From an uncultured Planctomycetaceae bacterium (GTDB taxonomy: Bacteria; Planctomycetota; Planctomycetia; Planctomycetales; Planctomycetaceae), in assembly GCA_964459965.1 (NCBI GenBank), contig CAYWOV010000001.1, forward strand, positions 1 to 42,944: a stretch of 42,944 bases of DNA, given 5' to 3'. A model generated the notes under the pieces. The model was given only the letters and a program-made list of their open reading frames with translations. It did no database searches and was not told the DNA's origin. This document shows positions 4,566 through 42,944 of this stretch, in pieces; the stretch's first letter is position 1; every line of letters starts with the position of its first letter. A program made the position numbers and the translations under genes.

Positions 4566-6782
4566 ATGCCGTCATGCTCCCAGCGGCCATCGCTTGAAGC
4601 GGTCAAGGCCGCAAAAAAAAAACTGAAGACGCAGCTCGCGGCCTTGCGGGACCTTGCCGGCCCCGGCTCGACGCGCACCATCGAGGAGATTCGCAGCGAT
4701 GATCGCCAGCGCAAGAAGCAAGAGCGCAAGTCCGCCTCGATCGTGGCGATTCCTCCCTGCGCCAACCGGCGGCGGCGGAATCGACTGGAGAAAGACGATG
4801 CGGCCTGGCTCCGCTGGTATTGCGACGATCCATGCTGGCCGCAGCGGGCCAGGTTTTGGTACGATTTCACCGGCCAGCAATTGGAGATGATTGCGGCCAT
4901 CCGGGAGGCGATTGTGAACGGCGGTGACCAGTCGATCGCGGCGTCGCGCGGCGAGGGGAAGACGAAGCTCTTCGAGCGGACGCTCTTGAAGCACGTCCTC
5001 AGCGGCGCCGTGTCCTTCGCCGTCCTGTTCGGCGCTACCGGCAGCAACGCCGAGGATTCTTTGGATTCGATCAAGCACACGCTCGAGACGGGCGAGCGTC
5101 TGCGTGCCGATTACCCGGAGGTCTGCATCCCGATCGTCTCTCTGGAAAACACGCCGAACCGGGCCCACTACCAGGTTGTCAGCGGCAAGCGCCACGATAA
5201 CGGAAAGCCCTACGAGGGCGTTTCCAGCCGCTTTTCCTGGTGCGGGCGCGAGATCATCCTGCCCCGCGTGCCCGGTTCGCCCTCGGCCGGCGCCATCATC
5301 GCCACCCGCGGCCTGGATGCCGCGGTCCGCGGCCTCAATAAGTTTTCCAGCCGCGTCGACGTGGCCGCCATCGACGATCCGGACACGGAGGAGACGGTCA
5401 ACAACCCGGAGCAGGCCGCCAAGCTGGAAAAGCGGATCGACATGGCGATCGCCGGCCTGGGCGGACAGCAGCGCTCCGTGGCCCGCGTCATGCTGACCAC
5501 GCTGCAGCGCCGCGAGTGCGTCTCGGCCAAGTTCACCGACCCGAAACAAAAGCCCTCCTGGAAGGGCAGGCGTTTCCGTTTCTTAGTAACACCGCCCGAT
5601 CGGCTGGATCTCTGGGAAGAGTACGTTGAGCTGCGGCAACTCGACTTTCAGGGCGACGATCCATTGGCGCGGCGTTCCCACCGGTTTTATGTCGATCGCC
5701 GCGCCGAGATGGACGCCGGCGCCGTGGTGGCCAATCCGCATCGTTACAACGGCGAACTTCTACCCGACGGCAGCCAGACGGAAGTCTCGGCCCTCGAGCG
5801 CTACTACAACGAAGTCGCCCGCATCGGCAAGGAGGCCGTCTCGACCGAATACGACAACGACCCGCCCGAAGAGTCCGGCCCCCAGGAGTCCGGCATCTCC
5901 GCCCGGCGGATCCAACGCCAGGTAAGCGGCTACGATCGCCGCGTGGCGCCTGCGGGCTGCGTGCACCTGGTGCAGGCGATCGACGTGCGGAAGATCGCCC
6001 TGCACTTCGTGGTGCGGGCGTTCCGCGAGGACGGCACCGGTTACACGATCGACTACGGCGTCCAAGACGTCCGCGGCACCACGCAGGGGAGCGACGAGGG
6101 TGTTGACGAGGCCCTCAAGCGGGCGCTTTCGGATCGCCGGGAAACGGTCGAGACGCAGCCCTACCGCGACCCGGATGGAAACCTCGTTCCTGTCGGGCTG
6201 ACGCTCATCGACGCCGGCTGGCGGACCGAGGCGATCTACCAGTGGTGCCTCGAAAACGGCCAGATGCTCTACAAGCCGGCCATGGGCTTCGGGCGTTCGG
6301 CCGGCTGCACGTCGGCCGCCTTCCGCGAGCCCACCAAGACGCAGCACGAGAAGCGCATGGGCCAGCGGTGGTTTTTATCGAAGCGGCCCCGCGGCGTGTG
6401 GCTGGTCTGCACCGACGCCGATTTTTGGAAGTCCTACGAGCACGATCACTGGATGCGCGACCCGGCCAAGCCGGGGGCCCTCTTGCTCTACGGCCACGGC
6501 GATGAAGAGCATCCCGAGCGGATGAGCGACGATCAGAAAAAGCACTTCAGTTATGCAAAACACCTCACGGCCGAAACGGAAGTCGAGGAGGTGGTCAAGG
6601 GCGCGCTGAAGCGTTACTGGAAGTCGAAGAGCGACAGCAACCACTATCTGGACGCCTCCTACATGACGGACGTGGCCGCCACGATGCTGGGCGTGCCGCT
6701 ACTGGGCACGGCGGCCCGGGCGCCCCAGATCGTCACGGCCGGCGAGTGGTTTTCAAGCACAAGCCAGCAGAAAGGACGGTGA
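4566..6782 (+). CDS. terL: Terminase large subunit (GpA / lambda-like)
   Basis: 738 aa. Walker A-like SRGEGKTKL and Walker B-like VDVAAIDDPDTEE. C-terminal nuclease-like LIDAGWRTEAIYQW and HYLDASYM. Size and position are typical of GpA-type TerL. The start is uncertain (see the A10 tract finding). Confidence 0.85.
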   Translation: MPSCSQRPSLEAVKAAKKKLKTQLAALRDLAGPGSTRTIEEIRSDDRQRKKQERKSASIVAIPPCANRRRRNRLEKDDAAWLRWYCDDPCWPQRARFWYDFTGQQLEMIAAIREAIVNGGDQSIAASRGEGKTKLFERTLLKHVLSGAVSFAVLFGATGSNAEDSLDSIKHTLETGERLRADYPEVCIPIVSLENTPNRAHYQVVSGKRHDNGKPYEGVSSRFSWCGREIILPRVPGSPSAGAIIATRGLDAAVRGLNKFSSRVDVAAIDDPDTEETVNNPEQAAKLEKRIDMAIAGLGGQQRSVARVMLTTLQRRECVSAKFTDPKQKPSWKGRRFRFLVTPPDRLDLWEEYVELRQLDFQGDDPLARRSHRFYVDRRAEMDAGAVVANPHRYNGELLPDGSQTEVSALERYYNEVARIGKEAVSTEYDNDPPEESGPQESGISARRIQRQVSGYDRRVAPAGCVHLVQAIDVRKIALHFVVRAFREDGTGYTIDYGVQDVRGTTQGSDEGVDEALKRALSDRRETVETQPYRDPDGNLVPVGLTLIDAGWRTEAIYQWCLENGQMLYKPAMGFGRSAGCTSAAFREPTKTQHEKRMGQRWFLSKRPRGVWLVCTDADFWKSYEHDHWMRDPAKPGALLLYGHGDEEHPERMSDDQKKHFSYAKHLTAETEVEEVVKGALKRYWKSKSDSNHYLDASYMTDVAATMLGVPLLGTAARAPQIVTAGEWFSSTSQQKGR

Positions 6783-6786
6783 ACTT

Positions 6787-7164
6787 GTGAGCGATTTTCC
6801 AAAGACCGACATTCGGGTCTTCCAAAGCCCGGTCGATCCGGCCAGGCCGATCGCTCTCTATATTTCGCAGCGCCACTACGAAAGCGACACGCCCAGCGGA
6901 GTCACATTCTTCCAGCAATACATCGGCCCGGGAGCGGAGCGTCCCTGTGCCGCCAGGCTTTCGTTGGAAGAGGCGCAGGGCCTGCTGGATTCGCTCTGGC
7001 AGGCCGGGCTTCGGCCGGCGGAGGCCTCCGGCTCGACCGGCCAGTTGGCCGCCACCGTGCGGCATCTCGAGGACATGCGGGCGATCGCGTTTTGCAAAAC
7101 CGACGTCTGTTTGCCTGAAGAGGCGCGCGCGTGTCGCACAAGCCAGATAGGATTCACCCCATGA
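6787..7164 (+). CDS. Hypothetical protein
   Basis: GTG start 5 nt after the terminase stop. Ordinary amino-acid composition and an ATGA overlap with the next ORF. Confidence 0.5.
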   Translation: MSDFPKTDIRVFQSPVDPARPIALYISQRHYESDTPSGVTFFQQYIGPGAERPCAARLSLEEAQGLLDSLWQAGLRPAEASGSTGQLAATVRHLEDMRAIAFCKTDVCLPEEARACRTSQIGFTP

Positions 7165-9954: not shown

Positions 9955-9991
9955 CCGTTTTCCTTCCGGCTTCCGCCCTCCGCCTTTGAAG

Positions 9992-11473
9992 ATGTCCCTC
10001 CGCAGCTTTTTCTCCGGACTGTTCGGCCGCTCCTCGACGCCGCCCGCGCCGCAGGAGGCCGCCGAGGTCATGCGCGGCCGCTGGGGCCGCTGGGACTCCA
10101 AAGACACGGACCGCATGAACCAGGCCCATTGGGCGAAGGTCACGGGTTTGCCTATCAATGCGGAACTCGCCTACGCCAGCAATTGGCTGCGGGCCCAGAG
10201 CGAGTACGAGATTTCTTCCAACCCGGTGATGGAAGGGATCGTCAACAGCTACTGCACCGACGTCGTCGGGCCGGACGGCCCCAGTTACCGCGTCACGAGC
10301 TCCGATCCCGAGTACAACCGCAAACGCGAGAAGATATGGCGCCAGTGGTGGCGGCACGCGGGGGCCAACCGCCAGCTTTCCGGCGTGGAGATCCTCAACG
10401 GCTGGGTCCGCTCGTTGTGGAAGGCGGGCGAGTTTGGGACGCAACTGATCAACGATCCCAACGCGGCCGGGCCGATCAAGGTCCGCCTCCTGCCGGTGCA
10501 CATGCACCGGCTCATGACGCCGCCCGAGTTCCTCGGCGATCCGGCCGTGGCCCTGGGCGTGCGGCGCGACGACAACCGCAACCCGATCGCCTATTACATC
10601 AGCGAGCCCTATATCTTCGGGCCCTTCGAGGTCTACACGGGCGAATTCTACATCGTCCGCTACGAGGATTTCATCCACGGTTTCGAGCAGACGGAAGAGG
10701 ACCAGGTGCGGGGCGTGCCCTGGCTGGCCAGCTCGTTGGACACGGTCGGCCAATTGCGGGACTGGGACAAGTCCATGCTGGACGCGGCCGAGTCGCTCTC
10801 GAAGACCGGCGTGGTTTGGCAGATGGAGGATCCGGGCGCAGCGCCGCAGATCATCCGTGGCTCGACGCCCATGGAACGGGGCCAGCAGACCTTCGGACCG
10901 CCCGGCTATAAGGCGCAACAGCTAAGCCCCACGCAGCCCAGCAGCGATCAGCAGAGTTTTCGCAGCGAGAAAAAGGCGGAGATCGGCCGGGGCCGCTGCA
11001 TCCCGCTGATGTTGATCAACCTCGACAGCAGCAAGCACAACTATTCGTCCGCCCGCTTCGACAATCAGCCCTATTGGCGATCGGTCGCCGGCGTGCAGGG
11101 CTGGCTGGGACGCATCGGCCTGGACCGGATCGAAGCCACCGTGATGCGCGAGGCCGAGCTGGCCGGCGAGCTGGACGAGCCGCCCGAGGATCTGGCCGTG
11201 GCCTGGGGCTGGATCAAGCCGCCCCACGTGGACCCCACCAAGGAGTCTGAGGCCGAGGCCGCCTACATCGAGAACCGCACCGTGCCCTGGTCCGACGCCG
11301 TGATCGCCCACGGCGACGATCCGGACCGCGTCTTGGCCACGCTCAAGCATGACAACGAGCGGATGAAGGAGGCCGGCCTGCCGCCGCTTCCCACCGCCGC
11401 GCCGCTGCCCAAGCCGGGTACCGGCTTCGCCAAGTTCGCCGCTGCCGCCGGCGGACAAGCCACGGGAGATTGA
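9992..11473 (+). CDS. Portal protein (lambda family)
   Basis: ATG at 9992. The upstream part of track ORF 9689.. is Pro/Arg-rich junk plus a family-C repeat. The region NQAHWAKV...NWLRAQSEYEISSNPVMEGIVNSYCTDVVGPDG is typical of lambda gpB-type portals. Confidence 0.8.
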   Translation: MSLRSFFSGLFGRSSTPPAPQEAAEVMRGRWGRWDSKDTDRMNQAHWAKVTGLPINAELAYASNWLRAQSEYEISSNPVMEGIVNSYCTDVVGPDGPSYRVTSSDPEYNRKREKIWRQWWRHAGANRQLSGVEILNGWVRSLWKAGEFGTQLINDPNAAGPIKVRLLPVHMHRLMTPPEFLGDPAVALGVRRDDNRNPIAYYISEPYIFGPFEVYTGEFYIVRYEDFIHGFEQTEEDQVRGVPWLASSLDTVGQLRDWDKSMLDAAESLSKTGVVWQMEDPGAAPQIIRGSTPMERGQQTFGPPGYKAQQLSPTQPSSDQQSFRSEKKAEIGRGRCIPLMLINLDSSKHNYSSARFDNQPYWRSVAGVQGWLGRIGLDRIEATVMREAELAGELDEPPEDLAVAWGWIKPPHVDPTKESEAEAAYIENRTVPWSDAVIAHGDDPDRVLATLKHDNERMKEAGLPPLPTAAPLPKPGTGFAKFAAAAGGQATGD

Positions 11474-11476
11474 AAG

Positions 11477-14272
11477 ATGCGCTGGACCGCCAAAGACGCT
11501 TCCGCAAAGAACAGCCGAGTCAAGGGCTCGCCCAAACTGCAAGCCCAGTGGGCCGCCGTCGCCAACGACGTGCTCAAGCGCCAATTGGCCAAGGGCAAAT
11601 CGCAAAGCGAGGCCGAGGGCGTCGCCATCGCCGCGGCCAACGCCGCGGTGAAGAAAAAGCCCGCCAAGGCGCGCAACTACAAGGGCGACGACGCGGAAGA
11701 TTTTCAACACGGCACCAAGGCGCCCATCGACAAGAAGTACGGCGTGCCGCCCAAGCCGGCGGCCCGCACCGTCACCGAGGCCCCGCCGGTCGCCCGTTCG
11801 GCGGAAGATCTGCTCTGCCGCGTGGCGCCGCTGGCGCCCTCGACGCTCGACGACGAGACCCGCAGCGTGAAGGCCGTGCTGGCCAGCGATGCGCCCTGCC
11901 TCTCGATCGACCTGAAGACCGGCAAGACCTTTCTGGAGGTCTACCGCATGGACGGCATGGAGCCCGTGGCGAGCCAGGTCCCCCTCTGCGACACGCACAA
12001 GCGGGACTCGATCGACCGCGTCAAGGGCTCCGTCCGCGAGATCCACACCGACGGCAGCCAGGCGGTGGGCACGCTCACCGTCGACTCGAGCGAGTATCAG
12101 GCCTGGAGCAAGATCCGCAACCGGCACGTCACCGACGTCTCGGCCGGCTTTCAGCCGCTGGAAACCACCAAGATCGACGCCGGCAAATCGAAAGAGGTTG
12201 CCGGCCGCCTCTACACGGCCCCCGCCGACCGCCCGCTTTTCGTGCACACGAAGTGGCGGCTGCGGGAGGTTTCTCTGACACCGATCGGCTCGGACGTTCG
12301 AGCCAAAATCCGATCATGCACAACCTTTCAAGGAGCAGCGAGCATGAATAAGCACATTCGCAAGTGGCTCGAAACCGAACTGAAGCTTCGGAGCGAAGCC
12401 ACCGACGAAGAGGCCCAGACGTTCTGGGATGCCCTCGCCGAAGCCGAGCGCAAGCGGGCCGAAGAGGCCTGCCGCGACAAGGACGACGAGGACGAGGAAG
12501 ACGACGAGGACGAGGAAGACGACGAGGACGAGCCGCCCAAGCCGTCCACGCACAAGGTCACCCGCCACAGCACGGTGACCGAAGAGTCCCGCGCCGCCGA
12601 GGAGATGGAACGCGTCCGCCAGGAGGCGGAGAAGGCCGGCGCCAAGCGGGGCCGCGAAAAGGAAGTCGCCCGGCAGCGGAAGATCCGCCAACTGGCCGGC
12701 AGCGACGTCCCGGCCGAGATCGTCACCCGGGCGATCGACGAAGGCTGGACGCTCTCCCGCGTCCGCACCGTGTTCTTGAAGACCGTCCGCGAAGGCCGAA
12801 GCCCCAGCGTGGGCGGCGGCGGCGACATCGACGAGGCGGCCATTCGTGAGACGGTCCGCGAAGGCGGACCGGCGATCCACGTCCGTTCGCGCGAGAGCGA
12901 CTGCACCGTGGGCACCATGGCCGCGGCGCTGTTTGTGCGCAGCTACAACGGCAGCCACGACCCGGTCGACCTGATCGGCGGCTACCAACCCTCCGCCAGT
13001 CTCACGGGCGAAGACGGCAAGCCGGAGCCCGGCCGGACCTACACGGTCCGCAACGACGTCACCCGCATGATCGCCGGCCGCAGCCGCACCGCCAGCGAGT
13101 CCCGCCGCAAGGCCAACGAACGGCTCTTGGACCTGGGCGACCGCTACCGCTCGATGTCGCCGATGGACCTGGTCGACGAATGCAACCGCATCGAGGGCCG
13201 CACCCGCACCAGCTACGACCGCGAAGAGCGCGTCCGTGCCGCCATGAGCGGCTCGGCCCTCTCGGCCATCTTCACCCAAAACGTCTCGGCCCAGTTCTTG
13301 GGCGGCTACCTCGACGCCGCCGACACCACGCAAGGCTGGACGACCGAGACTGACGTGCTGAACTTCCTCCAGAACGAGCGGGCCATCTACGGAAAGATGG
13401 GCCAGATGAAGAAGCTCGCCAAGGGCGGCACCGCCGCGGACCTCGACACCAGCGACTGGAACGAGGTCTACAAGATCTTCCGCTACGCCGGAAAGTTCAC
13501 CGTCGATGAGCAGGACTTCATCAACGACCGCTTCGGCGCCCTGGAGCAGATGTCCCCGCAGGACATGGGTCTGACGGGCCGCCAGATCCGGCCCAACCTG
13601 GTCTACGCCCTGCTCTTGAGCAATCCCACGCTCACCCAGGACAGCATCGCCGTGTTCGACGCCAACACGCACAAGAACATCATCACCGGCGCCGTGACGG
13701 ACTTCAACCCCACCACGCCCGCGGCCAACGCCGGGCCGTTCCAGGATGCGACCACCGCGATGGGCAAGCAGCGGCTGCGCAACCGCGTCTTGAACTTGCG
13801 GCCGCGGTACGTGATCGCCGGCACCGACCTCGAATGGGCCGTGAACATCCTCTACAAGAGCCAGCAGCGGATCATCGCTTCCGGCTCCGGCGGCACCTAC
13901 AACCCGCTGGCCGCCGAGGGCGCCAACGTCGAGAGCCGGCTGGACGGCCGTCTGGACCCGCTGGGCTGCTACGACAACGACACGGGCAAGACGTTCTATC
14001 CGTACACGACCACGGGCACCACGGCCGGCCGCAGCGGCATGGCCATCATGGCGGCCCGCCCCGGCGAGCAGGGCGCCAAGACCATCGAGGTCGGCTACCG
14101 CATCGGCACCGGCCGGGCCCCCCGCATCCGCAGCTCGATCCTCCGCGAGGGCAGCGGCCAGTACGGGATGAGCTGGGACGTGAACCTCGATATCGGTGCC
14201 AAGATCCTGGACTACCGCGGGTTGTGCCTGATCACGGGCGGCGGCAGCCAGTTGGCCGCGACCGGACCCTGA
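11477..14272 (+). CDS. Prohead protease (HK97/S78-like) - acidic scaffold - major capsid protein fusion
   Basis: Single uninterrupted 931-aa ORF. N-terminal ChaB-like segment. Protease core (PLCDTHKRDSIDRVKGSV...VSAGFQPL...WRLREVSLTPIGSD). Coiled-coil/poly-acidic scaffold. About 500-aa C-terminal capsid-like domain. Confidence 0.75.
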   Translation: MRWTAKDASAKNSRVKGSPKLQAQWAAVANDVLKRQLAKGKSQSEAEGVAIAAANAAVKKKPAKARNYKGDDAEDFQHGTKAPIDKKYGVPPKPAARTVTEAPPVARSAEDLLCRVAPLAPSTLDDETRSVKAVLASDAPCLSIDLKTGKTFLEVYRMDGMEPVASQVPLCDTHKRDSIDRVKGSVREIHTDGSQAVGTLTVDSSEYQAWSKIRNRHVTDVSAGFQPLETTKIDAGKSKEVAGRLYTAPADRPLFVHTKWRLREVSLTPIGSDVRAKIRSCTTFQGAASMNKHIRKWLETELKLRSEATDEEAQTFWDALAEAERKRAEEACRDKDDEDEEDDEDEEDDEDEPPKPSTHKVTRHSTVTEESRAAEEMERVRQEAEKAGAKRGREKEVARQRKIRQLAGSDVPAEIVTRAIDEGWTLSRVRTVFLKTVREGRSPSVGGGGDIDEAAIRETVREGGPAIHVRSRESDCTVGTMAAALFVRSYNGSHDPVDLIGGYQPSASLTGEDGKPEPGRTYTVRNDVTRMIAGRSRTASESRRKANERLLDLGDRYRSMSPMDLVDECNRIEGRTRTSYDREERVRAAMSGSALSAIFTQNVSAQFLGGYLDAADTTQGWTTETDVLNFLQNERAIYGKMGQMKKLAKGGTAADLDTSDWNEVYKIFRYAGKFTVDEQDFINDRFGALEQMSPQDMGLTGRQIRPNLVYALLLSNPTLTQDSIAVFDANTHKNIITGAVTDFNPTTPAANAGPFQDATTAMGKQRLRNRVLNLRPRYVIAGTDLEWAVNILYKSQQRIIASGSGGTYNPLAAEGANVESRLDGRLDPLGCYDNDTGKTFYPYTTTGTTAGRSGMAIMAARPGEQGAKTIEVGYRIGTGRAPRIRSSILREGSGQYGMSWDVNLDIGAKILDYRGLCLITGGGSQLAATGP
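12344..14272 (+). CDS. Possible nested in-frame product: scaffold + major capsid protein from an internal start
   Basis: AAGGAG at 12330-12335 lies 8 nt upstream of an in-frame ATG at 12344, exactly at the end of the protease domain. Confidence 0.4.
   Translation: MNKHIRKWLETELKLRSEATDEEAQTFWDALAEAERKRAEEACRDKDDEDEEDDEDEEDDEDEPPKPSTHKVTRHSTVTEESRAAEEMERVRQEAEKAGAKRGREKEVARQRKIRQLAGSDVPAEIVTRAIDEGWTLSRVRTVFLKTVREGRSPSVGGGGDIDEAAIRETVREGGPAIHVRSRESDCTVGTMAAALFVRSYNGSHDPVDLIGGYQPSASLTGEDGKPEPGRTYTVRNDVTRMIAGRSRTASESRRKANERLLDLGDRYRSMSPMDLVDECNRIEGRTRTSYDREERVRAAMSGSALSAIFTQNVSAQFLGGYLDAADTTQGWTTETDVLNFLQNERAIYGKMGQMKKLAKGGTAADLDTSDWNEVYKIFRYAGKFTVDEQDFINDRFGALEQMSPQDMGLTGRQIRPNLVYALLLSNPTLTQDSIAVFDANTHKNIITGAVTDFNPTTPAANAGPFQDATTAMGKQRLRNRVLNLRPRYVIAGTDLEWAVNILYKSQQRIIASGSGGTYNPLAAEGANVESRLDGRLDPLGCYDNDTGKTFYPYTTTGTTAGRSGMAIMAARPGEQGAKTIEVGYRIGTGRAPRIRSSILREGSGQYGMSWDVNLDIGAKILDYRGLCLITGGGSQLAATGP
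12482..12532 (+). repeat. 2.8 tandem copies of an 18-bp unit GACGACGAGGACGAGGAA (poly-Asp/Glu run)
   Basis: Read directly. Encodes DDEDEEDDEDEEDDEDE in the scaffold segment. Confidence 0.9.
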
Positions 14273-15954: not shown

Positions 15955-16356
15955 GTGTCCAGCATCTCCTTTTTCGACGAAGTGTTCCAGGCCAACGCGC
16001 CGGTGGTGGATTCCATCTTCGGCAAGTCCTACGGTCTGCGCTGGGCGGGGACGGCCATCACACTGACGGCGATCCTGTCGGCCCACCCCATCAACTTCGA
16101 CAGCGAAGGCGACGTCGTCGAGACCACCCATTCCCATAACTTCGAGGTCACCGCGGCGGCCTTGACGCTCGGCCAAAGCGGGGCAGTCATCCTGCCGCAA
16201 CCCGGCATGCAGTTCACCGATCTGCAAGCCGACGGCACCAACGCCGTCTACGAGGTCGTCAAACGCGACGACGGCCGCTGTTACGACCCGGTGGACAACG
16301 AGGCCACGCGGCTGTTGGTTTATGCAAAGCTGATCCGGCGGAGCGAGAAGACATGA
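15955..16356 (+). CDS. Hypothetical structural protein (head-tail connector region)
   Basis: GTG start and synteny between the head and tail genes. 133 aa. Confidence 0.55.
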   Translation: MSSISFFDEVFQANAPVVDSIFGKSYGLRWAGTAITLTAILSAHPINFDSEGDVVETTHSHNFEVTAAALTLGQSGAVILPQPGMQFTDLQADGTNAVYEVVKRDDGRCYDPVDNEATRLLVYAKLIRRSEKT

Positions 16357-26681: not shown

Positions 26682-26892
26682 GGGGGGAAAAGGGATTTGG
26701 GGGATTTAGGGATTTAGAGATTCGGCCCAGGGGCTCTTATCGGCGTGGCCCGGGCTGGGAAACGAGCCGGCCGCGGAAAACGGGGCCCCAGGATTGCGCC
26801 TCTTGCGTTTCGAGCCGTCCGTCCGATGCCCGGGGCCTGGCCGCTTGCAACGCGACAGCGTCGAAGCTACGCTATGGAGAGTGCCGCGACTT

Positions 26893-26941
26893 GCGGACTG
26901 TCGATCCGAAGGTTGCGGGTTCGATTCCCGTCGTCCTCGCC
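26893..26941 (+). other. tRNA-Asp(GTC)-like 3' half (anticodon loop to acceptor end); candidate attP core
   Basis: T-arm GCGGG-TTCGATT-CCCGT, 3' acceptor strand CGTCCTC + G + CC, variable AGGTT and anticodon loop CTGTCGA. No complementary 5' acceptor strand or D-arm is found upstream. Confidence 0.5.
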
Positions 26942-27025
26942 TTGTTTTCCCCAGAAACGGGGGGTGGACTAGACGGGCTCTTTTTTGCGCCCCCTCGTCC
27001 ATCCCCACCCATGGAGGGTGAGACG

Positions 27026-28457: not shown

Positions 28458-28490
28458 CACCACGGAGACACCGAGGGCACGGAGACAAGG
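28458..28490 (+). repeat. Dispersed repeat family B (representative copy); consensus CACCACGGAGACACGGAGAGCACGGAG
   Basis: Forward copies: 28458-28490, 29027-29060, 35562-35594, 41127-41152, 41848-41880. Reverse copy: 41909-41931. Confidence 0.8.
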
Positions 28491-28628: not shown

Positions 28629-29075
28629 ATGGATTCTACCGCGAAAAACGGCCGCGTCAAGGCGGAAGCGCCCGTCCGGCGCCGTGTCTACCAATACTCG
28701 CGCCGCCGTGTCTACCAATACTCGCGCCTGCTCACGCTCAGCGTCGGCCGCGACCTCGACCACCGCTTCCATTGCTGGTTAAGCGAGTACGGCCGCTACG
28801 ATCGGCTCTTTTTCAGCGAGGCCCTGCCGCCAAGAAAGACCTTCGCCGAGGCGGAGGCCGACCTGGAACGCTTCGCCCGCGCCAAGGGCCTGGTGCAGAT
28901 CGCCGATGAGCAGGTGTGCCGCGTCTGCGGCTGCACGCATGAATCGGCCTTCTGCGAGGAGACCGGCGAGCCGTGCCACTGGATCGAGGAGGACCTGTGC
29001 AGCGCGTGCGTGGGCAAAGCGGAAGATTCACCACGGAGCCACGGAGAGCACGGAGGGGGAAAGGGCCATGGGTGA
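28629..29075 (+). CDS. Cys-rich protein (CxxCGC...C...C...CxxC)
   Basis: Motif CRVCGCTHESAFCEETGEPCHWIEEDLCSAC. It contains a 24-bp tandem duplication, and its tail is a family-B repeat. Confidence 0.55.
   Translation: MDSTAKNGRVKAEAPVRRRVYQYSRRRVYQYSRLLTLSVGRDLDHRFHCWLSEYGRYDRLFFSEALPPRKTFAEAEADLERFARAKGLVQIADEQVCRVCGCTHESAFCEETGEPCHWIEEDLCSACVGKAEDSPRSHGEHGGGKGHG
28680..28727 (+). repeat. Two perfect tandem copies of the 24-bp unit CGCCGTGTCTACCAATACTCGCGC
   Basis: Read directly. Encodes RRVYQYSR twice. Confidence 0.9.
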
Positions 29076-29838: not shown

Positions 29839-29890
29839 TGGGCGAGAGGAGGGGATTTAGGGGAGAGGGATTTGGGGATTTTGGCAGCGT

Positions 29891-29919
29891 CGAGCTTCGG
29901 ACTATATGTCCGAAGCTCG
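29891..29919. promoter_or_regulatory. Perfect 29-bp palindrome CGAGCTTCGGAC-TATAT-GTCCGAAGCTCG
   Basis: Read directly: 12-bp arms around a central TATAT. Confidence 0.8.
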
Positions 29920-30050
29920 GCGGTACCCGCCCGCTTGCAATATGGAAGAGGGGCCCGCGGCGGAGGGCGGAAGGCACAGGGTCGTCCCCCCGACGATCCG
30001 ACGATTGCCGACGCCTTCCGCCTTCCGCCGCCGGCCCGTTTGCAAAGGCG

Positions 30051-30075
30051 GACGGCGGAGGGCGGAAGGGGGAAG
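30051..30075 (+). repeat. Dispersed repeat family C (representative copy); consensus GGCGGAGGGCGGAAGGGGGAAGG
   Basis: Forward copies: 8584-8613, 17664-17696, 29957-29974, 30051-30075, 30253-30282, 38477-38505. Reverse copies: 8389-8430, 9961-9988, 30014-30031, 30114-30138, 38319-38340. Confidence 0.8.
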
Positions 30076-30540
30076 GAAACGACCAGGCCAGAGAAGAGGC
30101 GGGCCTCTCCGGACTTCCCCCTTCCGCCTTCCGCCGTCCCCCTTATTTCCGATCTCCGCTCCGCCGCTCGGCGGCAACGTGGCATGTGGTTGTCTCTCCT
30201 TACCACGGGACATGGTGCGGCGTCGTCGAGCGGCGCAGCGGGGATCGGGGGGCGGCGCGGAGGGCGGATCGTGGAGGGCGGCCGGGAGAGTCGCCGCGGG
30301 ACAGCCGGGCCATCACCTGCCCGGTCCTGCGGATGGTACGAAAACCGGCCGCCTTCCACCGTCGGCCCTCGCGTGGGCGCCCTGGTGGGGTTTGAACGAC
30401 TGCACATCGTGAAAACTGCTTTTTGCAAAATGGAAGACGGAAGGGAGGCGCGTGGAAGTTCGGGCGACGTGCCCGGGCCGCGTCTCTCGCGGGTGGCGTG
30501 ACGGTGGGAGCGGGGCGCCCACGCGCGGGCTGAGCCGACA

Positions 30541-30587
30541 GGGATTTGGAGAGCAGGGATTTAGGGACCGGGGATTTAGGGATTTGG
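30541..30587 (+). repeat. Dispersed repeat family D (representative copy); unit GGGATTT(A/G), reverse form CCCCAAATCCCTAAATCCC / CCAATCCCCAATCC
   Basis: Forward copies: 26393-26416, 26691-26728, 29851-29884, 30541-30587, 39981-40016, 42303-42330. Reverse copies: 30593-30620, 30757-30783, 34101-34140, 35776-35800, 40034-40068, 41161-41192. Confidence 0.8.
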
Positions 30588-30831
30588 CGTCTCGAAATCC
30601 CGTAATCCCAAAATCCCTCGTCTAACTACACTGGAGCAATAGCGGTGGATTGCCCTTCGGCACGGACGAGCTTCACACTACGCAACGGCACTTGGGCCGG
30701 GGCCGTCCGCCATCACGTAAGGACTCTGCACCATGCACGACCTGTTCTTGCCCGCTCGAAATCCCCAAATCCCCAAATCCCTGCCGTCCCCCATCACCAC
30801 TCCCGCCTCGGCCTGGCCCGACGCCGGCGAG

Positions 30832-31920
30832 ATGCTTTTCAGCGAGGCGGTGGAGGCCTGGTTTGCAAGCCGATCGCACCTCAGTCAGAAGACGCTCGAT
30901 GGAAATCGCTCCGTGGCCTGGTCCATATTCCGCTTCGTGCGGGCGAACCTCTCGCTCTACGCGCTGCGCAAGCTGCATCCCACGCTGGCCGCCGAGTGGT
31001 TGCAATGGCTACAGGCCAATCCGCCCACACAGGCCAAGGCCTGGTCGTTGCCCAGGGACTTTTCGCGGGAGAGCGTGGCGCTGTTCCTCCAGGACTGCGA
31101 CGCGACGCCGGAGATGGCGGGCAAGACGCGGCGGCGGAAATCGACCGTGAATCGCTTTTGGCGGGATGGCGGCAGCCAGCTCTGCAAGTGGCTGGGGCAG
31201 ACGGCCCGACCCACGAAAAAGGACCTGCCGCGGCCGCGGCGGACGCAGCCCTTGGTGCCCACGCTGGAGGAAATCGCCGCCCGCTGGCGGGACATCCTCA
31301 TCGGCGGCCAAGGCGAGGCCACCGCCAGCCAGCGCCGCCGCGTGGTGCTCACGCAGGGCTTTTTATTGCTCACCGGCCTGCGCAAGCAGGAGGGCCTCTT
31401 GGTCGAACAGCGGGGCCTGCAGGACTCGTTCCTCCTGGTGCCCGGCGAGATTACCAAGCCGCGGGTTCCCAAGATGATTTGCATCAATGGGCAGGCCTTG
31501 GGCGTAGCCGCCGCGCTCCGCGGGCAGTTGACCTTCGGATTCGCGGAAGGAAAACGGCATCGGCTGTTGGGCTGGCCCTACACGCCGGGCCACTGGGACC
31601 ACCTGGTGGCCAAGTGCGGACCGGCGGCCTGGAAGAATCAGCAGCAGTCCTTGCGCCAGCGCTGCGCGACCTGGGTGCGCGCCCGCGATCCGGACGCCGA
31701 GCGGGTGCAGCTTGGCCACGGCGGCGGCGACGTGGTGCAGATTCACTACCTGGACAAGCTGCGGGAACTGCCGGCTCTGATGAATCAATTCGTCTTGCCG
31801 GACCTCGACGTACCCGGCTTCGCCTGGCCGGCGCCGATCCAGGCCAGCCACGCCGTGCCCAGGGAGCTTTATGCCGAGTTCGACGAGCTCATGGACGCCT
31901 GCGAGCCGGCGGCGGCCTGA
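30832..31920 (+). CDS. int: Tyrosine recombinase / integrase
   Basis: N-terminal SAM-like FSEAVEAWFASRSHLSQKTLDGNRS. Box I LLLTGLRKQE. QSLRQRCATW occupies the HxxR position (Q replaces H). LGHGGGDVVQIHY provides the catalytic Tyr. I prefer the ATG at 30832, because the upstream codons of track ORF 30733.. are a family-D repeat. Confidence 0.75.
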   Translation: MLFSEAVEAWFASRSHLSQKTLDGNRSVAWSIFRFVRANLSLYALRKLHPTLAAEWLQWLQANPPTQAKAWSLPRDFSRESVALFLQDCDATPEMAGKTRRRKSTVNRFWRDGGSQLCKWLGQTARPTKKDLPRPRRTQPLVPTLEEIAARWRDILIGGQGEATASQRRRVVLTQGFLLLTGLRKQEGLLVEQRGLQDSFLLVPGEITKPRVPKMICINGQALGVAAALRGQLTFGFAEGKRHRLLGWPYTPGHWDHLVAKCGPAAWKNQQQSLRQRCATWVRARDPDAERVQLGHGGGDVVQIHYLDKLRELPALMNQFVLPDLDVPGFAWPAPIQASHAVPRELYAEFDELMDACEPAAA

Positions 31921-32127
31921 AACATGAATACACTCACGCGGAGTCGTGGAGGGCTGCTGGACGCATCCAACGCGGACAAGGAAAACAGCCTTGTGTTTCC
32001 GCGGCTCCGCGTGAGACTTTTTTCTCTCGTGGAGGCGGGCGCAAGATGGCGATCGGACCCTTTGCGTCTTTGCGCCTTTGCGTGAGCCTTTTTTCGACCT
32101 GGTGTTCTTGAAACGAAGGAGCAAGCG

Positions 32128-32373
32128 ATGCTGATCCTGGTACGGAAGGAAAATGAAAAGGTGCTGATGCCCGCGCTGGGCATCACGATCACCGTCTGCC
32201 GCCTCAAGGGCGACAAGGTATGCCTGGGCATCGACGCCCCGCGGGAGGTCGAGATTCAGCGCGAAGAGGTCCTGCAACGGATTCTCTTGGGCCAGATTCT
32301 CCAAGCGCCGCCGGCGATCGCCGCGGACCTGGTGCTACCGCCGGAACCGGCGGGGAGGGTTTTGGCATCATGA
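32128..32373 (+). CDS. csrA: CsrA/RsmA-family RNA-binding translational regulator
   Basis: MLILVRKENEKVLM...ITITVCRLKGDKVCLGIDAPREVEIQREEV is collinear with bacterial CsrA. Strong SD (AAGGAG). Confidence 0.88.
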   Translation: MLILVRKENEKVLMPALGITITVCRLKGDKVCLGIDAPREVEIQREEVLQRILLGQILQAPPAIAADLVLPPEPAGRVLAS

Positions 32374-32615
32374 CGACCGAAACGCTTTTGCGCCTCGGGC
32401 CGCACGATTGGGTCAATCCGGCGGATATCGCCGCCGTGCGGTGGTTCAGCAGCCCGGTCACGGAGCATTGGGAGCTGCGCATCTGGCACCCGGCTGCCTG
32501 GCCGGCGATGTATTTCGTCGTCGCCCGGGACTGCGAATTGGACGTGGTGAAGGCCCTGGGCATCGAGCCGCGGCCGCCGATCGAGCGCGCGGAAGCGGCG
32601 GAGAAAGTCGATTAG
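32370..32615 (+). CDS. Small protein translationally coupled to csrA (unknown function)
   Basis: ATGA overlap with the csrA stop. 81 aa, Trp-rich, ordinary composition. Confidence 0.55.
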   Translation: MTTETLLRLGPHDWVNPADIAAVRWFSSPVTEHWELRIWHPAAWPAMYFVVARDCELDVVKALGIEPRPPIERAEAAEKVD

Positions 32616-32663: not shown

Positions 32664-34166
32664 ATGGAAAAGGAGCGGCCCTACCCCGTCGCCGAACTGC
32701 TGGCGATCGCCGAGGGAGAGCACGCCGAGCGCGTGGCGACGCTGGAAAACCTCCGCAACGTGACCGAGGTGCGGAAGAGCTACACCGCGGTGCTCCTCTG
32801 GCTGCACGGCCGCGGGGCGATCTCGCGCGACGTGGCGGCCGACTGGCGGGAGATCGGCGCCTCCTCCGCGGTGCGGCTGGGACAGCGGACGGTGCAGGAG
32901 GCGGTCAAGTTCTGGCGCCGCCTGGGCATCTTGAAAACGACCGCGCGGTATGATAACAACGGATCGTTGATCGCTCCGCTCGCACGACTGGACTGGGGGG
33001 CCGTCCTCGCGGTCATGACGGGCCGGCCGAATGCCGCCGTGCACGAGGCCCCCAGGGCGGAGCGGGTGGCCGAGGCGGAGGGCCGGCATTTCCTTGCCGG
33101 CCCTCCGCATTCTGACCCTTCTCCGGAGAACCCTGGGGCAGAGTCCATTGCCCGCGGAGAGCAGTTTACCGCAGCCACGCAAAGCGCCCAAGGGCAAGCC
33201 GGAAAGGCCCTCTCCACTTCCGGGGGTCCTAGCGCACGGAGGCATACCGACAACGGGGGTCCTAGCGCACCGTGCGCTACCCCTAGCGCACCGTGCGCTA
33301 CCCCTAGCGCACGGTGCGCTAGGGTCCTTACCGCCGACGGGGGTCCTAGCGCACGCGAGCCGCTTCGCCATGGAGCGTACGCGCGGCGTGACTGGCAACG
33401 CGTGCACGCCTGCGCGCACGGTCTTTCCGTCTCCGTATCCGATTCCGTCGTCGACGACGGAGGCGTGCGCCGCGAGGCGCCGCCGGCCGCGGTGCGGTCG
33501 CTGATCGGCGAGGCGGCGGCCTTGCTGGGCATGAATCCGCCGGGCGAAAAAATGCACCGGCTGCTCTCGGCCGCCGCCCTGGCTGCGCTCTGGTTTTGGG
33601 GCCGCGATTGGTTGCTCATCTCGGCGCGAATCATGGGCGAGGACATGAAGGAAGGCAGGGTGAGGAGGCCCACGGGCCTGCTGCCCTGCATCCTGGCCGA
33701 GCAGGCCGTGGCCGTAGGCGGCATGCAAACCATCGATGATCCGGGCGTCCGCCTCTCGCGCTACAACGCGATCATGAGTCCCATCGAGCGCTTCGCCGCG
33801 CGCAGATACCCGCCGCCGGCGGCGCCGCCGCAGCAGCCGCCCGCGGCCGCCGCGGCGCGATCGCGCTACGAGGTCTCCGCGGACGAGCGGGCGGCGCGAC
33901 AGCGCGAAGAGCGGGGAATCATCGCCGCGGCGCGCAATGCGCTCAAGGCCGCGCCCTCCCCTGCCCCGGGGCAGGGCGAAAGCGGGGACCAAGAAAAACC
34001 CCTAGAATTCGCGGGGGAAATGCAGAAGGGGGGCGCGGAACGACAAGGCGAAAGCGAGCAGGGGGAGGGGGATTTCGGGACGGGAGACGGGGAAACGACC
34101 GATCCCCAAATCCCTAAATCCCCCGTCTCTAAATCCCTCGTTTCCGCCGCCGCGCGGCCGCCGTAA
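32664..34166 (+). CDS. Replication initiator-like protein (N-terminal winged-helix) containing the putative origin
   Basis: N-terminus ...VLLWLHGRGAISRDVAADWREIGASSAVRLGQRTVQEAVKFWRRLGIL looks like wHTH. An iteron/palindrome cluster is embedded mid-gene, as in lambda O. The C-terminal tail is a family-D repeat. Confidence 0.5.
   Translation: MEKERPYPVAELLAIAEGEHAERVATLENLRNVTEVRKSYTAVLLWLHGRGAISRDVAADWREIGASSAVRLGQRTVQEAVKFWRRLGILKTTARYDNNGSLIAPLARLDWGAVLAVMTGRPNAAVHEAPRAERVAEAEGRHFLAGPPHSDPSPENPGAESIARGEQFTAATQSAQGQAGKALSTSGGPSARRHTDNGGPSAPCATPSAPCATPSARCARVLTADGGPSAREPLRHGAYARRDWQRVHACAHGLSVSVSDSVVDDGGVRREAPPAAVRSLIGEAAALLGMNPPGEKMHRLLSAAALAALWFWGRDWLLISARIMGEDMKEGRVRRPTGLLPCILAEQAVAVGGMQTIDDPGVRLSRYNAIMSPIERFAARRYPPPAAPPQQPPAAAAARSRYEVSADERAARQREERGIIAAARNALKAAPSPAPGQGESGDQEKPLEFAGEMQKGGAERQGESEQGEGDFGTGDGETTDPQIPKSPVSKSLVSAAARPP
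33222..33354. promoter_or_regulatory. Putative origin of replication: iterons plus palindromes
   Basis: GGGGGTCCTAGCGCAC occurs at 33222, 33255 and 33339. TAGCGCAC(C/G)GTGCGCTA palindromes occur at 33263-33279, 33284-33300 and 33305-33321 (21-bp phasing). Confidence 0.55.
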
Positions 34167-34321
34167 CGTGCGAACTTGTGTCCCGAGCCGCCTGCTCGTC
34201 GCAAGGCGGCTCCGGCCGGACCGGCGCTTTGGCACAGTTCACTTGGCAGAGGACGGGCCGGCGCCGGCCCCGGCCGGGTTTTTCAAATTCCCGTGGCGAT
34301 TCGAGGAGGGAGGAAGGAAAA

Positions 34322-35809
34322 GTGGTTACGACAACGAAACGAAGACGCTCTCACGCCAAGGCGCCAAGGCGCAAAGCCAACCAGACGGCGCCGGACAGCA
34401 AGACGAAAGCACCGGCGGCGGATAAAAACCGCTTCGAGCACGATCTCTGGGGGCTCATCGACGGCGCGGAAAAATGGCTGCGGCGGCACCGCGTCCCGCA
34501 ACGAGACTTCGGCCTCTGGACGATGCTGCTGCCGGACGAGGAGTGGCACGTGTCCATCTCGCTGAAGGCGTGGACCGCGAAAGTCGATCGTTGGCTGGAG
34601 GCCTGGCGGAAGGCCGGCTGGCAGCGGGCCCCGGCTGGTCGGGAATACCAGGTCTTCAAGACCGTCGGCGACGTGCCGATGGGCATCCAGTTCGCCGACC
34701 TGGGCAGCGGCGTCTACGCGGTGAGAAAGGGCGACCCGGAGTTTTTCAGCGACACGGATTACATGTCGCTGAGTCAGATCGGTTCCCGGACGACGCCCGC
34801 GGCGGCGGAAAAACTGCTGCTCAAAGAACTCGAGAAATTCCGCCAAAAACGGGCTAAGGTGGAACTGAAGCGCTTGGGCGGTAAGCGCCATCCTCCCCGC
34901 GCCTCTGCGCCTTTGCGTGAGACTCCTTCGGTCAAACCTGGTGCCCCCGGCGGAAACGGCGAGGCCGCCGGCACGGCCATGGTGCTGCGCCAGGACGGCC
35001 CGGACCTGCCGGCGATCGTCTCGCTGGAGGAGGCCGAAACGCTCAAGGAGTGCGAAGAGACGATCCGCCAAAACCTCCATGGCTTTATCGAGGTCGGCCA
35101 GGCCCTGGGGCGGATCCAGCAGGAGCGGCTCTATCGGGGCAAGTACAAGACGTTCGAGGAGTATTGCCGCACGGAGTGGGATTTCGCCCGCGCCTACGCC
35201 TACCGCCTGGTGAGCGCGGCCAGCGTGGTCAAGCGGCTGGAAGTGTCACCAATTGGCGACGGCGGCAAAAGTGGGACGAAGCGCTCCGACCTCCCGGACG
35301 GCCATATCGTGCTGCCGGCGACCGAGTCGCAGGTGCGGCCCCTGACGCGGCTGACCGACCCCAAGCAGCAGATCGCCGCCTGGAAAAAGGTCCTCAAGGC
35401 GGCGCCCCGCGGGGCCGACAACGTGCCGCGGGTGACGGCCGAGATCGTGGAACGGGTGGTGGCCGAGACGATCGGAGAGCCGACGAAGAGGCCGGCGGCA
35501 AACGGGCACGCGGCGATGGAAGAACCTCGCGCGAAGCCGCAAAGCCGCGAAGGAAAAGAGATTCACCACGGAGACACGGAGCGCACGGAGAGGGATCATG
35601 GGCTGCCGCTCTGGAAGCTCGAGGCCGCTACGCTCTTGGCCCTCGACCGCGAGTTGGAAGAGACGGTCAAAACCTATTCGCTCGACGAGCTGGACGAATT
35701 GCTTCTTTTGCTCCGCGACCTGGCCGGCCGCGTGGTGGCATTGCACGCGAAGTGGCGGCAAGGAGGGGCCCGCCGCCAATCCCCAATCCCCAATCCCTCG
35801 GTCCGATGA
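34322..35809 (+). CDS. Multi-domain DNA-binding protein (DUF3102 / ParB-HTH-like central domain)
   Basis: The central segment FIEVGQALGRIQQERLYRGKYKTFEEYCRTEWDFARAYAYRLVSAASVV is typical of phage/plasmid HTH proteins. I suggest the GTG at 34322, after a GGAGGGAGGAAGG stretch. Three repeat elements are read in frame. Confidence 0.5.
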   Translation: MVTTTKRRRSHAKAPRRKANQTAPDSKTKAPAADKNRFEHDLWGLIDGAEKWLRRHRVPQRDFGLWTMLLPDEEWHVSISLKAWTAKVDRWLEAWRKAGWQRAPAGREYQVFKTVGDVPMGIQFADLGSGVYAVRKGDPEFFSDTDYMSLSQIGSRTTPAAAEKLLLKELEKFRQKRAKVELKRLGGKRHPPRASAPLRETPSVKPGAPGGNGEAAGTAMVLRQDGPDLPAIVSLEEAETLKECEETIRQNLHGFIEVGQALGRIQQERLYRGKYKTFEEYCRTEWDFARAYAYRLVSAASVVKRLEVSPIGDGGKSGTKRSDLPDGHIVLPATESQVRPLTRLTDPKQQIAAWKKVLKAAPRGADNVPRVTAEIVERVVAETIGEPTKRPAANGHAAMEEPRAKPQSREGKEIHHGDTERTERDHGLPLWKLEAATLLALDRELEETVKTYSLDELDELLLLLRDLAGRVVALHAKWRQGGARRQSPIPNPSVR

Positions 35810-39973: not shown

Positions 39974-40086
39974 TCAGAGCAGGGATTGGGAGAGCTGGGA
40001 ATTTCGGGATTTCGAGAACGCCCGAACTCCGTACCCCTAAATCCCTAAATCCCTGACCCCTAAATCCGTCTCTCTGGAGCAAAGCG

Positions 40087-41094: not shown

Positions 41095-41250
41095 GACGGA
41101 AGCCAGACGGCCATGGACCCACACCGATCACCACGGAGACACGGAGAGGGACGGCCTAGAACCAATCCCCAATCCCCAATCCCTAATCCCTTTGTTGAAC
41201 AACCCCCGCGGCGCGCGTCGCCGCCTTCCCCTTTTTTGGAGAGCATCGTC

Positions 41251-41849: not shown

Positions 41850-41973
41850 CCACGGGGACACCGAGAACACGGAGACAAACCCGGGGGGGCGGAAGCCAAG
41901 TGCTTCTTTTCTCCGTGTTCTCTCGGGCACCGACCGCTTGCGGTTGGTCGCCGTGGTGAGTAAGGAGCGTCTC

Positions 41974-42341: not shown

Positions 42342-42944
42342 ATGAAACCGAGATGGTCTTGCCTGGCTTTTGGACTTCTTGTGGCGGCCTGGCTGGCCGC
42401 CGGCTGCCGTGAATCCGCAACGCGGCCGCCGCGCCGGCTCGGGGCGGTGGTCACGCCGACCTACCTCGTGCCGGATCGGAATCTTTCCGACGTCCAGAGC
42501 CGTAGCGCCTCGCTGGCCAATCTGGGCGGCGTCAGCTCCGCGACCGTCTCGGGCAGCCTGTCCAGCTACTTCCTTTCGGCCGGCACGCCGGCCTTCGCCA
42601 CCACGGCCACGCTGGCAAACTACCCCACCACGGCCAGCGTGTCGGGGTCCCTTGCAAGCTATTTTCCTTCGTCGGGAACAACGGCCCTTGCGACCACGGC
42701 CAGCCTGTCCAACTATTTTCTTTCGTCCGGCACTCCGGCCTTCGCCACCACGGCCACGCTGGCGAATTATCCCACCACGGCCAGCGTCTCGGGGTCGCTC
42801 AGTAGCTATTTCCTTTCCGCCGGCACAACGGCCTTTGCCACCACGGGAAGCCTCGCCGCTTACGAGCCCATCTCTGCGATGGCCGCCTACGCCACCACGG
42901 CCACGCTGGCAAACTACCCCACCACGGCCAGCGTGTCGGGGTCC
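42342..42944 (+). CDS. Tail fibre / tailspike protein, N-terminal 201 codons (continues at 2..2509; 1018 aa in total if circular)
   Basis: ATG at 42342 with no stop to the window end (not in the supplied ORF track). It is in frame with 2..2509 through the 55-nt overlap. Begins MKPRWSCLAFGLLVAAWLAAGC, then fibre repeats. Confidence 0.7.
   Translation, partial: MKPRWSCLAFGLLVAAWLAAGCRESATRPPRRLGAVVTPTYLVPDRNLSDVQSRSASLANLGGVSSATVSGSLSSYFLSAGTPAFATTATLANYPTTASVSGSLASYFPSSGTTALATTASLSNYFLSSGTPAFATTATLANYPTTASVSGSLSSYFLSAGTTAFATTGSLAAYEPISAMAAYATTATLANYPTTASVSGS
42596..42793 (+). repeat. Copy 1 of the 198-bp perfect direct repeat (copy 2 = 1..198)
   Basis: See the feature at 1..198. Confidence 0.95.
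42890..42944 (+). repeat. 55-nt terminal overlap with window positions 1..55
   Basis: Exact identity read directly. The same 55-mer also occurs at 42596-42650. Confidence 0.95.

Follow-up and report, generated by a model that had tools for sequence, protein, structure and literature searches.

Few proteins that control CsrA directly are known, namely FliW, CesT, and YopD. In FliW systems, the C-terminal tail of CsrA serves as the docking site (PMC7366521). CesT, a type III secretion chaperone of EPEC, and YopD are examples outside FliW of proteins that inhibit CsrA by binding to its dimer (PMC5864733, PMC6583979). CsrA paralogues also occur on mobile elements; CsrT and related proteins of Legionella integrative conjugative elements and the RsmQ-type regulators of plasmids are thought to rewire the expression of the host or of the element (PMC7366521). 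In phages, csrA was catalogued in 30 of 2517 genomes in a report of 2020 (PMC7366521), and the knock-down of csrA in phage PTXU04 (gp28), which was reported in 2025 to shrink plaques, is essentially the sole functional test of a phage CsrA (PMC11879866).

The stretch of DNA analyzed here, called the window, has a full length of 42,944 nucleotides. Its csrA locus resembled the known phage and plasmid CsrA/Rsm examples (PHROG 9500 and 5527; the RsmM-type genes of P. aeruginosa phages such as phi297, Vibrio phage csrA, and PTXU04 gp28) in that it contained a small CsrA-family gene located among phage early genes. It differed from them in that the window csrA was followed by a partner gene, whereas none of the examined GenBank csrA phages had one, and in that the window CsrA came from an uncultured high-GC clade. 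CsrT and RsmQ are likewise CsrA paralogues of mobile elements, but their carriers are conjugative elements rather than tailed phages, and they are not known to have a protein partner of their own. Phage csrA is already known (PHROG 9500; PMC7366521, PMC11879866); the new element of this locus is the strictly linked partner.

The csrA gene (32128..32373 on the plus strand, with ATG at 32128 and TGA at 32371-32373) encodes an 81-aa CsrA-family RNA-binding protein, and the sequence showed a Shine-Dalgarno motif, AAGGAG (32116..32121, plus strand), which contains GGA and is located 6 nt 5' of the ATG. The GC contents at the first, second, and third codon positions of the frame were 0.72, 0.38, and 0.80, respectively, which is the pattern of a genuine gene in this genome of 66% GC. 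Residues 1-52 matched Pfam PF02599 (E 3.4e-16; 59.4 bits against a gathering threshold of 27) over model positions 1-51 of 53, about the full domain, and were followed by a non-conserved C-terminal tail of 29 aa. The protein also matched PHROG 9500, "CsrA-like regulator," and, with E of about 6e-9, solved structures of dimeric CsrA/RsmE (PDB 1y00, 2jpp, and 2bti). Its identity with E. coli CsrA was about 46% over the core, with one residue inserted. When the CsrAs of eight phage lineages were compared, the overall identity was 34-51%, and L2, L4, R6, E10, A37, R45 (corresponding to E. coli R44), and E47 were invariant; position 7, Lys in the window CsrA, was Lys or Arg in all of them. For RNA binding by CsrA, L4 and R44 matter most (PMC7652899). 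Because both are kept, RNA binding by the window CsrA is very likely retained, as judged from its sequence. The earlier note on this DNA had taken the ORF for a CsrA homologue and had proposed a Pfam HMM search as the check; the score against PF02599 and the intact RNA-binding residues bore this out.

The window CsrA matched the NCBIfam equivalog models NF002469 and TIGR00202 with scores below their cut-offs (55.3 bits against 73, and 49.2 bits against 70.1, respectively), and a word-index search of 5.8 billion proteins retrieved only the query itself and no close relative. On both grounds, the window CsrA was considered to be a divergent paralogue, and a housekeeping CsrA or a freshly captured host csrA was ruled out. 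The GenBank phage records matching the protein numbered 50, at 43-52% identity. One further candidate relative, L075, was rejected as an unrelated low-GC phage in which a CsrA-like gene had a different neighbor. In the related locus L004, a tandem duplication of 290 nt (5884-6173 and 6542-6831, 98% identical) placed an additional csrA copy, truncated to 60 aa (5983-6165), 5' of the complete csrA-partner pair.

The window is the genome of a temperate tailed phage, siphovirus-like, from peat and soil metagenomes, and near-identical copies of the stretch were present in three other metagenome assemblies. It encoded a large terminase, a portal protein, a protease-capsid fusion, and a tape measure protein; the head proteins showed 26-28% identity with those of lambdoid phages, a remote kinship to cultured phages. 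An attP core of 50 nt (26894..26943, plus strand) was 100% identical to the 3' end of a host tRNA-Asp gene. The core was matched at 4959-5008 of L010, a related prophage whose junction with the host DNA is formed by tRNA-Asp (GTC) (the coordinates 4931-5006 of L010 are also given for this tRNA-Asp match), and this 50-nt identity at the junction marks tRNA-Asp as the integration site of the phage. Neither the partner alignment nor the integrase alignment gave a match when the GTDB species genomes were scanned.

Directly upstream of csrA was the gene of a divergent tyrosine integrase (30733..31920, plus strand), which matched the PHROG 1 integrase with E 6e-5 and gave no match in a Pfam scan; in an alignment of four lineages, the motifs TG(L/M)R..E, ITKPR, LRQ, and LGHGGGDVV..HY were kept. 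The region between the integrase gene and csrA (31933..32096, plus strand) contained two long hairpins (31933-32015 and 32024-32086) with a T-run after each; the fold was -88.8 kcal/mol (z -3.1), and a terminator-like site was located at 32069-32086. These hairpins are made of the AAGGCGC/GCGCCTT repeat family (D3) and are terminator-like or attenuator-like; a similar hairpin with a T-run was located 5' of csrA in the L006 lineage, as read from the frameshifted copy L025. The earlier note had placed csrA in the lysogeny/early region of a tailed phage, and its position directly after the integrase gene, together with the attP core, agreed with this. Downstream of the partner, the same strand carried a gene of 500 aa (32664..34166, plus strand), a gene of 543 aa, and a DNA methyltransferase gene, without any evident terminator, and csrA thus heads the early operon.

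The 500-aa early gene was conserved, with syntenic homologues in L004, L010, and L017, and had no family match in Pfam, PHROG, or NCBIfam. It may encode a replication initiator, because three iteron-like repeats of 21 bp are located inside it (33261-33323). Each of these three tandem repeats, within the region 33228-33354, holds a 17-bp palindrome, TAGCGCACCGTGCGCTA, and extra half-sites are close by; the homologues in L017 and L016 have different internal repeats at the same place. Such repeats inside the ORF resemble an iteron origin embedded in an initiator gene, as in lambda O.

The partner gene (32370..32615 on the plus strand, with ATG at 32370 and TAG at 32613-32615) encodes an 81-aa protein of an undescribed family with a pI of 5.0 and five Trp residues. 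Its start codon overlaps the stop codon of csrA by 4 nt (ATGA), and its Shine-Dalgarno sequence, read as GGAGG (32354..32358, plus strand), is located within the 3' end of csrA. The codon-position GC contents of the partner frame were 0.68, 0.48, and 0.85, as in confirmed genes of the same phage, whereas the in-frame 5' extension of the ORF (32220-32369) gave the non-coding-type values of 0.78, 0.80, and 0.44. Because this extension lacked the coding GC pattern, we determined ATG 32370 to be the true start. That the partner is a real gene followed from its homologues, which were found at 42-65% identity in independent metagenomes. The coordinates, the csrA Shine-Dalgarno sequence, the ATGA overlap, and the Trp-rich 81-aa ORF were all as the earlier note had described them. 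However, 4-nt overlaps of start and stop codons were frequent in this phage, for example at 16353/16356 and 28269/28272, and the ATGA overlap alone is therefore weak evidence of a special relationship between the two genes.

To find relatives of the partner, we used searches that were blind to genomic context. When 1.84 billion representative proteins were searched exhaustively with phmmer, four small homologues at 42-65% identity were found, and a profile search added three more (P0003-P0006 and P0008-P0010 in total); a word-index protein search retrieved only the query itself. A search of IMG/VR gave no match with the single protein and one contig with the alignment, and a metagenome scan found only further copies of known lineages. 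Two apparent partner variants, L025 and L026, were rejected as frameshifted copies of the L006 lineage. Only about eight lineages with the partner were found in all. Upstream DNA was available for seven of them (the window, L004/L016, L006, L007-9, L010/L012, L019, and L020-23; L024 was cut at the partner and was hence outside the count), and csrA was located immediately upstream of the partner in all seven. The conservation of the small ORF next to csrA in related elements, the lack of which the earlier note had named as evidence against a partnership, was thus found in every testable lineage. The junctions varied: the genes overlapped by 4 nt in the window, L004, and L020 and by 26 nt in L007, and lay 13-30 nt apart in L006, L010, and L019. 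Five lineages were examined at the junction, and in each the partner had its own GGAG-type Shine-Dalgarno sequence 6-12 nt 5' of its start. The partner gene is thus real and conserved, is linked to csrA, and represents a new family.

All the partner loci were syntenic, with the order integrase, csrA, partner, 500-aa gene, and 543-aa gene, and their integrases showed 36-69% identity. Part of the csrA-partner adjacency is therefore due to shared ancestry within one syntenic phage clade. Such a clade is what would be expected if the partner were an unrelated early gene that neighbors csrA only through the gene order of the clade, with CsrA acting alone, and the frequency of short gene overlaps in this phage and the lack of detectable similarity between the partner and FliW or CesT fit this explanation as well. 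So does L017, a locus found by an integrase-based search in which csrA directly abuts a 541-aa gene and no partner was detectable beside it; this locus and the partner-less GenBank csrA phages indicated that CsrA does not need the partner. We nevertheless regard the explanation by gene order as rather unlikely. The pair stayed intact in L004 despite a downstream insertion (a 163-aa gene after the partner), the partner was conserved as well as CsrA (42-65% against 34-51% identity), and no partner without csrA was found among the 1.84 billion representative proteins. Since csrA without the partner exists and the partner without csrA was never found, the dependency runs one way, as expected of an accessory factor. 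The acidity of the partner and its tandem duplication in one lineage, described below, also fit a protein that binds the CsrA dimer.

The partner proteins shared the motifs RL..W(V/I)NP, W25, (Y/W/F)HP, YF.V, and LGIE, with R8, L9, W25, H40-P41, and Y48 as the invariant residues, and were acidic in all lineages (pI 4.3-5.4). The pI of the linked CsrAs was near 10 in five of seven, and was 6.2 for the window CsrA and 8.4 for that of L020. No match to the partner was found in Pfam, PHROG, NCBIfam, PADLOC, the PDB sequences (including a profile search), or GenBank phages. An AlphaFold2 model (pLDDT 81, pTM 0.64) predicted a small beta-sheet with a helix and then a disordered tail after it, and fold searches with this model gave no significant match in PDB (best E 0.95, chemokines) or BFVD (best E 0.11). 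In L007, the partner P0005 (1642-2031, 129 aa), whose gene is the one overlapping the csrA end by 26 nt, consisted of a head-to-tail duplication of a partner domain of about 60 aa, and its two halves were modeled with the same topology. This tandem duplication suggests that the partner would function as a dimer, in keeping with the two-fold symmetry of the CsrA dimer.

In concept, the csrA-partner pair appears closest to FliW-CsrA of Bacillus, Campylobacter, and Helicobacter, with which it shares an extended CsrA C-terminus and a co-encoded acidic protein that would act on CsrA at roughly equimolar levels. All partner-linked CsrAs carried C-terminal tails, giving total lengths of 74-88 aa as compared with 61 aa in E. 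coli. These tails showed no sequence conservation, and their sole common motif, G(R/K), is explained by the partner Shine-Dalgarno sequence that sits in that DNA. By contrast, at every point where FliW membership could be examined, the partner fell outside the family: there was neither a PF02623 match (at E<=1 for the window partner and at E<=10 for nine family members), nor a FliW fold, nor a flagellin context. At about 80 aa, the partner is roughly half the size of FliW. Sequence, size, and predicted fold thus set the partner apart from FliW, which the earlier note had mentioned as an antagonist of CsrA in many bacteria. The partner also differed from CesT and YopD, to which it showed no sequence or fold similarity, and whose main functions lie elsewhere and whose genes do not neighbor csrA.

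The location of a small gene on the same strand about 450 nt downstream of an integrase gene would also suit an excisionase, i.e., the recombination directionality factor of the adjoining integrase. Recombination directionality factors are typically basic DNA binders, whereas the partner was acidic in every lineage. It showed no HTH, winged-helix, or Xis match at the level of family or fold, and csrA was always located between the integrase gene and the partner; we consider this identity very improbable.

The pair is also reminiscent of a toxin-antitoxin-like, addiction, or abortive-infection module, since both genes are small, overlap, are translated together, and are located close to one end of the prophage, and since the second encodes an acidic protein with a low-confidence tail in its model. 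CsrA would then be a translation-blocking toxin and the partner its labile antidote, so that the prophage would be stabilized or other phages excluded. The Hag-FliW-CsrA loop, with its near-equimolar ratio, has itself been likened to toxin-antitoxin systems (PMC7652899). However, PADLOC gave no match at E<=0.1 to defense models for csrA, the partner, or their neighbors, Pfam gave none for the partner, and the partner showed no DNA-binding domain for autoregulation. The two genes are no isolated cassette but stand at the head of the early replication operon, and L017 retains csrA without the antidote. Such a module therefore seems quite improbable, if less so than an excisionase.

With these alternatives weighed, we lean slightly toward the reading that the partner serves as an accessory factor dedicated to the divergent but functional phage CsrA at the head of the early operon of a tRNA-Asp-integrating phage. 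In the mechanism that we propose, the phage CsrA would be a homodimeric regulator recognizing GGA motifs within or close to Shine-Dalgarno sequences, and its binding would change the translation of phage and/or host mRNAs. The partner, which would be translationally coupled to csrA in some lineages, would most likely bind the CsrA dimer with one partner domain per symmetric half; binding to the dimer is favored because of the acidity of the partner and the tandem-duplicated domain of P0005. The partner could thereby modulate or antagonize the RNA binding of CsrA and would be analogous to FliW and CesT in function while being evolutionarily unrelated to them. It may thus represent a previously undescribed class of CsrA modulators. 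Should the two proteins prove to interact, phages would carry a regulator together with its control element, and the pair would provide a compact tool to switch CsrA-type repression.

The earlier note had also stated that the leaders of this phage were rich in GGA-containing repeats and had connected these with csrA. Such repeats do exist and are often located in leaders. A threefold array of CACGGAG (29032..29055, plus strand) had its last unit running into the Shine-Dalgarno sequence of a DUF5131 gene (ATG 29068), and further copies were located at 28461-28484, 35567-35590, 41132-41146, and 41851-41874; tandem CACGGAG matches in the window numbered 5 as against 0.01 expected. In the SELEX consensus of CsrA, RUACARGGAUGU, the ACA and GGA elements are 100% conserved (PMC7652899). 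The middle unit of the array, ACACGGAG, holds both elements, and the array 29032-29055 is a candidate CsrA-type binding array. Other heptamers, AAGGCGC, GGCGGAG, and GGGATTT in the window and AAGGATG in L004, formed arrays in leaders or long hairpins.

The repeats were not, however, confined to csrA phages as far as could be seen. An exact 18-mer, CACCACGGAGACACGGAG, occurred in 46 stretches on about 43 other IMG/VR contigs with GC contents of 54-70%, and neither csrA nor the partner was found in the 433 kb of DNA surrounding these arrays, which covers parts of the contigs. In many of these contigs the last unit was again the Shine-Dalgarno sequence, and in about 13 of them an inverted copy makes a hairpin. 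GGA was absent from 13 of the 37 repeat units in the csrA clade and from all the arrays of L017, and some arrays were located within ORFs or on the opposite strand. The units without GGA, the arrays in ORFs or on the opposite strand, and the contigs without a nearby csrA weaken a specific link between the arrays and this CsrA. The arrays resemble an element of leaders or of translation initiation that is widespread in the phages of some host group, and it is plausible that they are CsrA-type sites, either for the host or for the phage CsrA. They point to translational control signals common to many uncultured soil phages. A more far-reaching possibility would combine the arrays with the csrA-partner pair into a phage CsrA/anti-CsrA switch. 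The partner, an acidic protein with a new fold, would dock on the CsrA dimer and release it on a phage or host cue, and the CACGGAG arrays (ACA-N-GGA) ending in Shine-Dalgarno sequences would be the RNA operators of a translational regulon. We consider such a switch unlikely as it stands; if true, the regulon would time early and late phage expression or shut down host functions such as immunity.

An Rfam scan of the window at E<=1 gave ten matches, all below gathering and none to a Csr/Rsm sRNA; they were to miRNA-precursor, snoRNA, and antisense-sRNA models, with the miRNA-type matches on the long hairpins. These hairpins were also rejected as CsrB-like sponges, with GGA located in the stems and not in the loops and no Csr/Rsm match in Rfam. 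The array TTCACCACGGAGACACGGAGnnCACGGAGAA, absent from Rfam, was kept at the nucleotide level in about 43 diverse contigs (L027-L072) and its end was often located 5-20 nt 5' of an ATG. The non-coding gap of 894 nt upstream of the integrase gene contained a run of five long near-perfect hairpins (29883-30370) with arms made of GGCGGAGGGCGGAAGG-type heptamer repeats, and they resembled miRNA precursors in Rfam only because of their length.

The ATG at 35598, which follows a CACGGAG array, was refuted as a gene start by the frame-specific GC3 profile; this array is located in the non-conserved 3' tail of the ORF 34178-35809. The last 110 or so codons of this ORF (35474-35809) were not kept in relatives and consist mostly of an AAGCCGC repeat and the CACGGAG array read in frame ('PRAKPQSREGKEIHHGDTERTERDHG'), and it appears that a repeat cassette was inserted into the 3' end of the ORF.

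Several other repeats and an unusual head gene were observed. Telomere-like GGGATTT(A) arrays were located on the plus strand at 26685-26725, 29860-29900, and 30555-30595 and on the complement at 30753-30781, 34094-34139, and 40017-40070. They were common to related phages (L004 12886-12924; L010 near 9960-9995) and were either intergenic or at the 3' ends of ORFs, in which case their translation gives "IPKSPNP" peptide tails. The protease-capsid fusion was a single ORF of 931 aa (11477-14272) with both head-maturation-protease and major-capsid matches, and it matched PHROG 4523, "major head and protease protein." The two ends of the window, 1-214 and 42596-42809, had a 214-nt stretch in common (98% identical, offset 135 nt), and 27/54-nt periodic repeats were present at both ends. 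The shared stretch sits in a repeat-rich tail-fiber-like ORF with ATTA(T/S)LANYPTTASVSGS-type repeats, which suggests that the assembly was circularly closed or permuted and that its break point fell within a repetitive gene.
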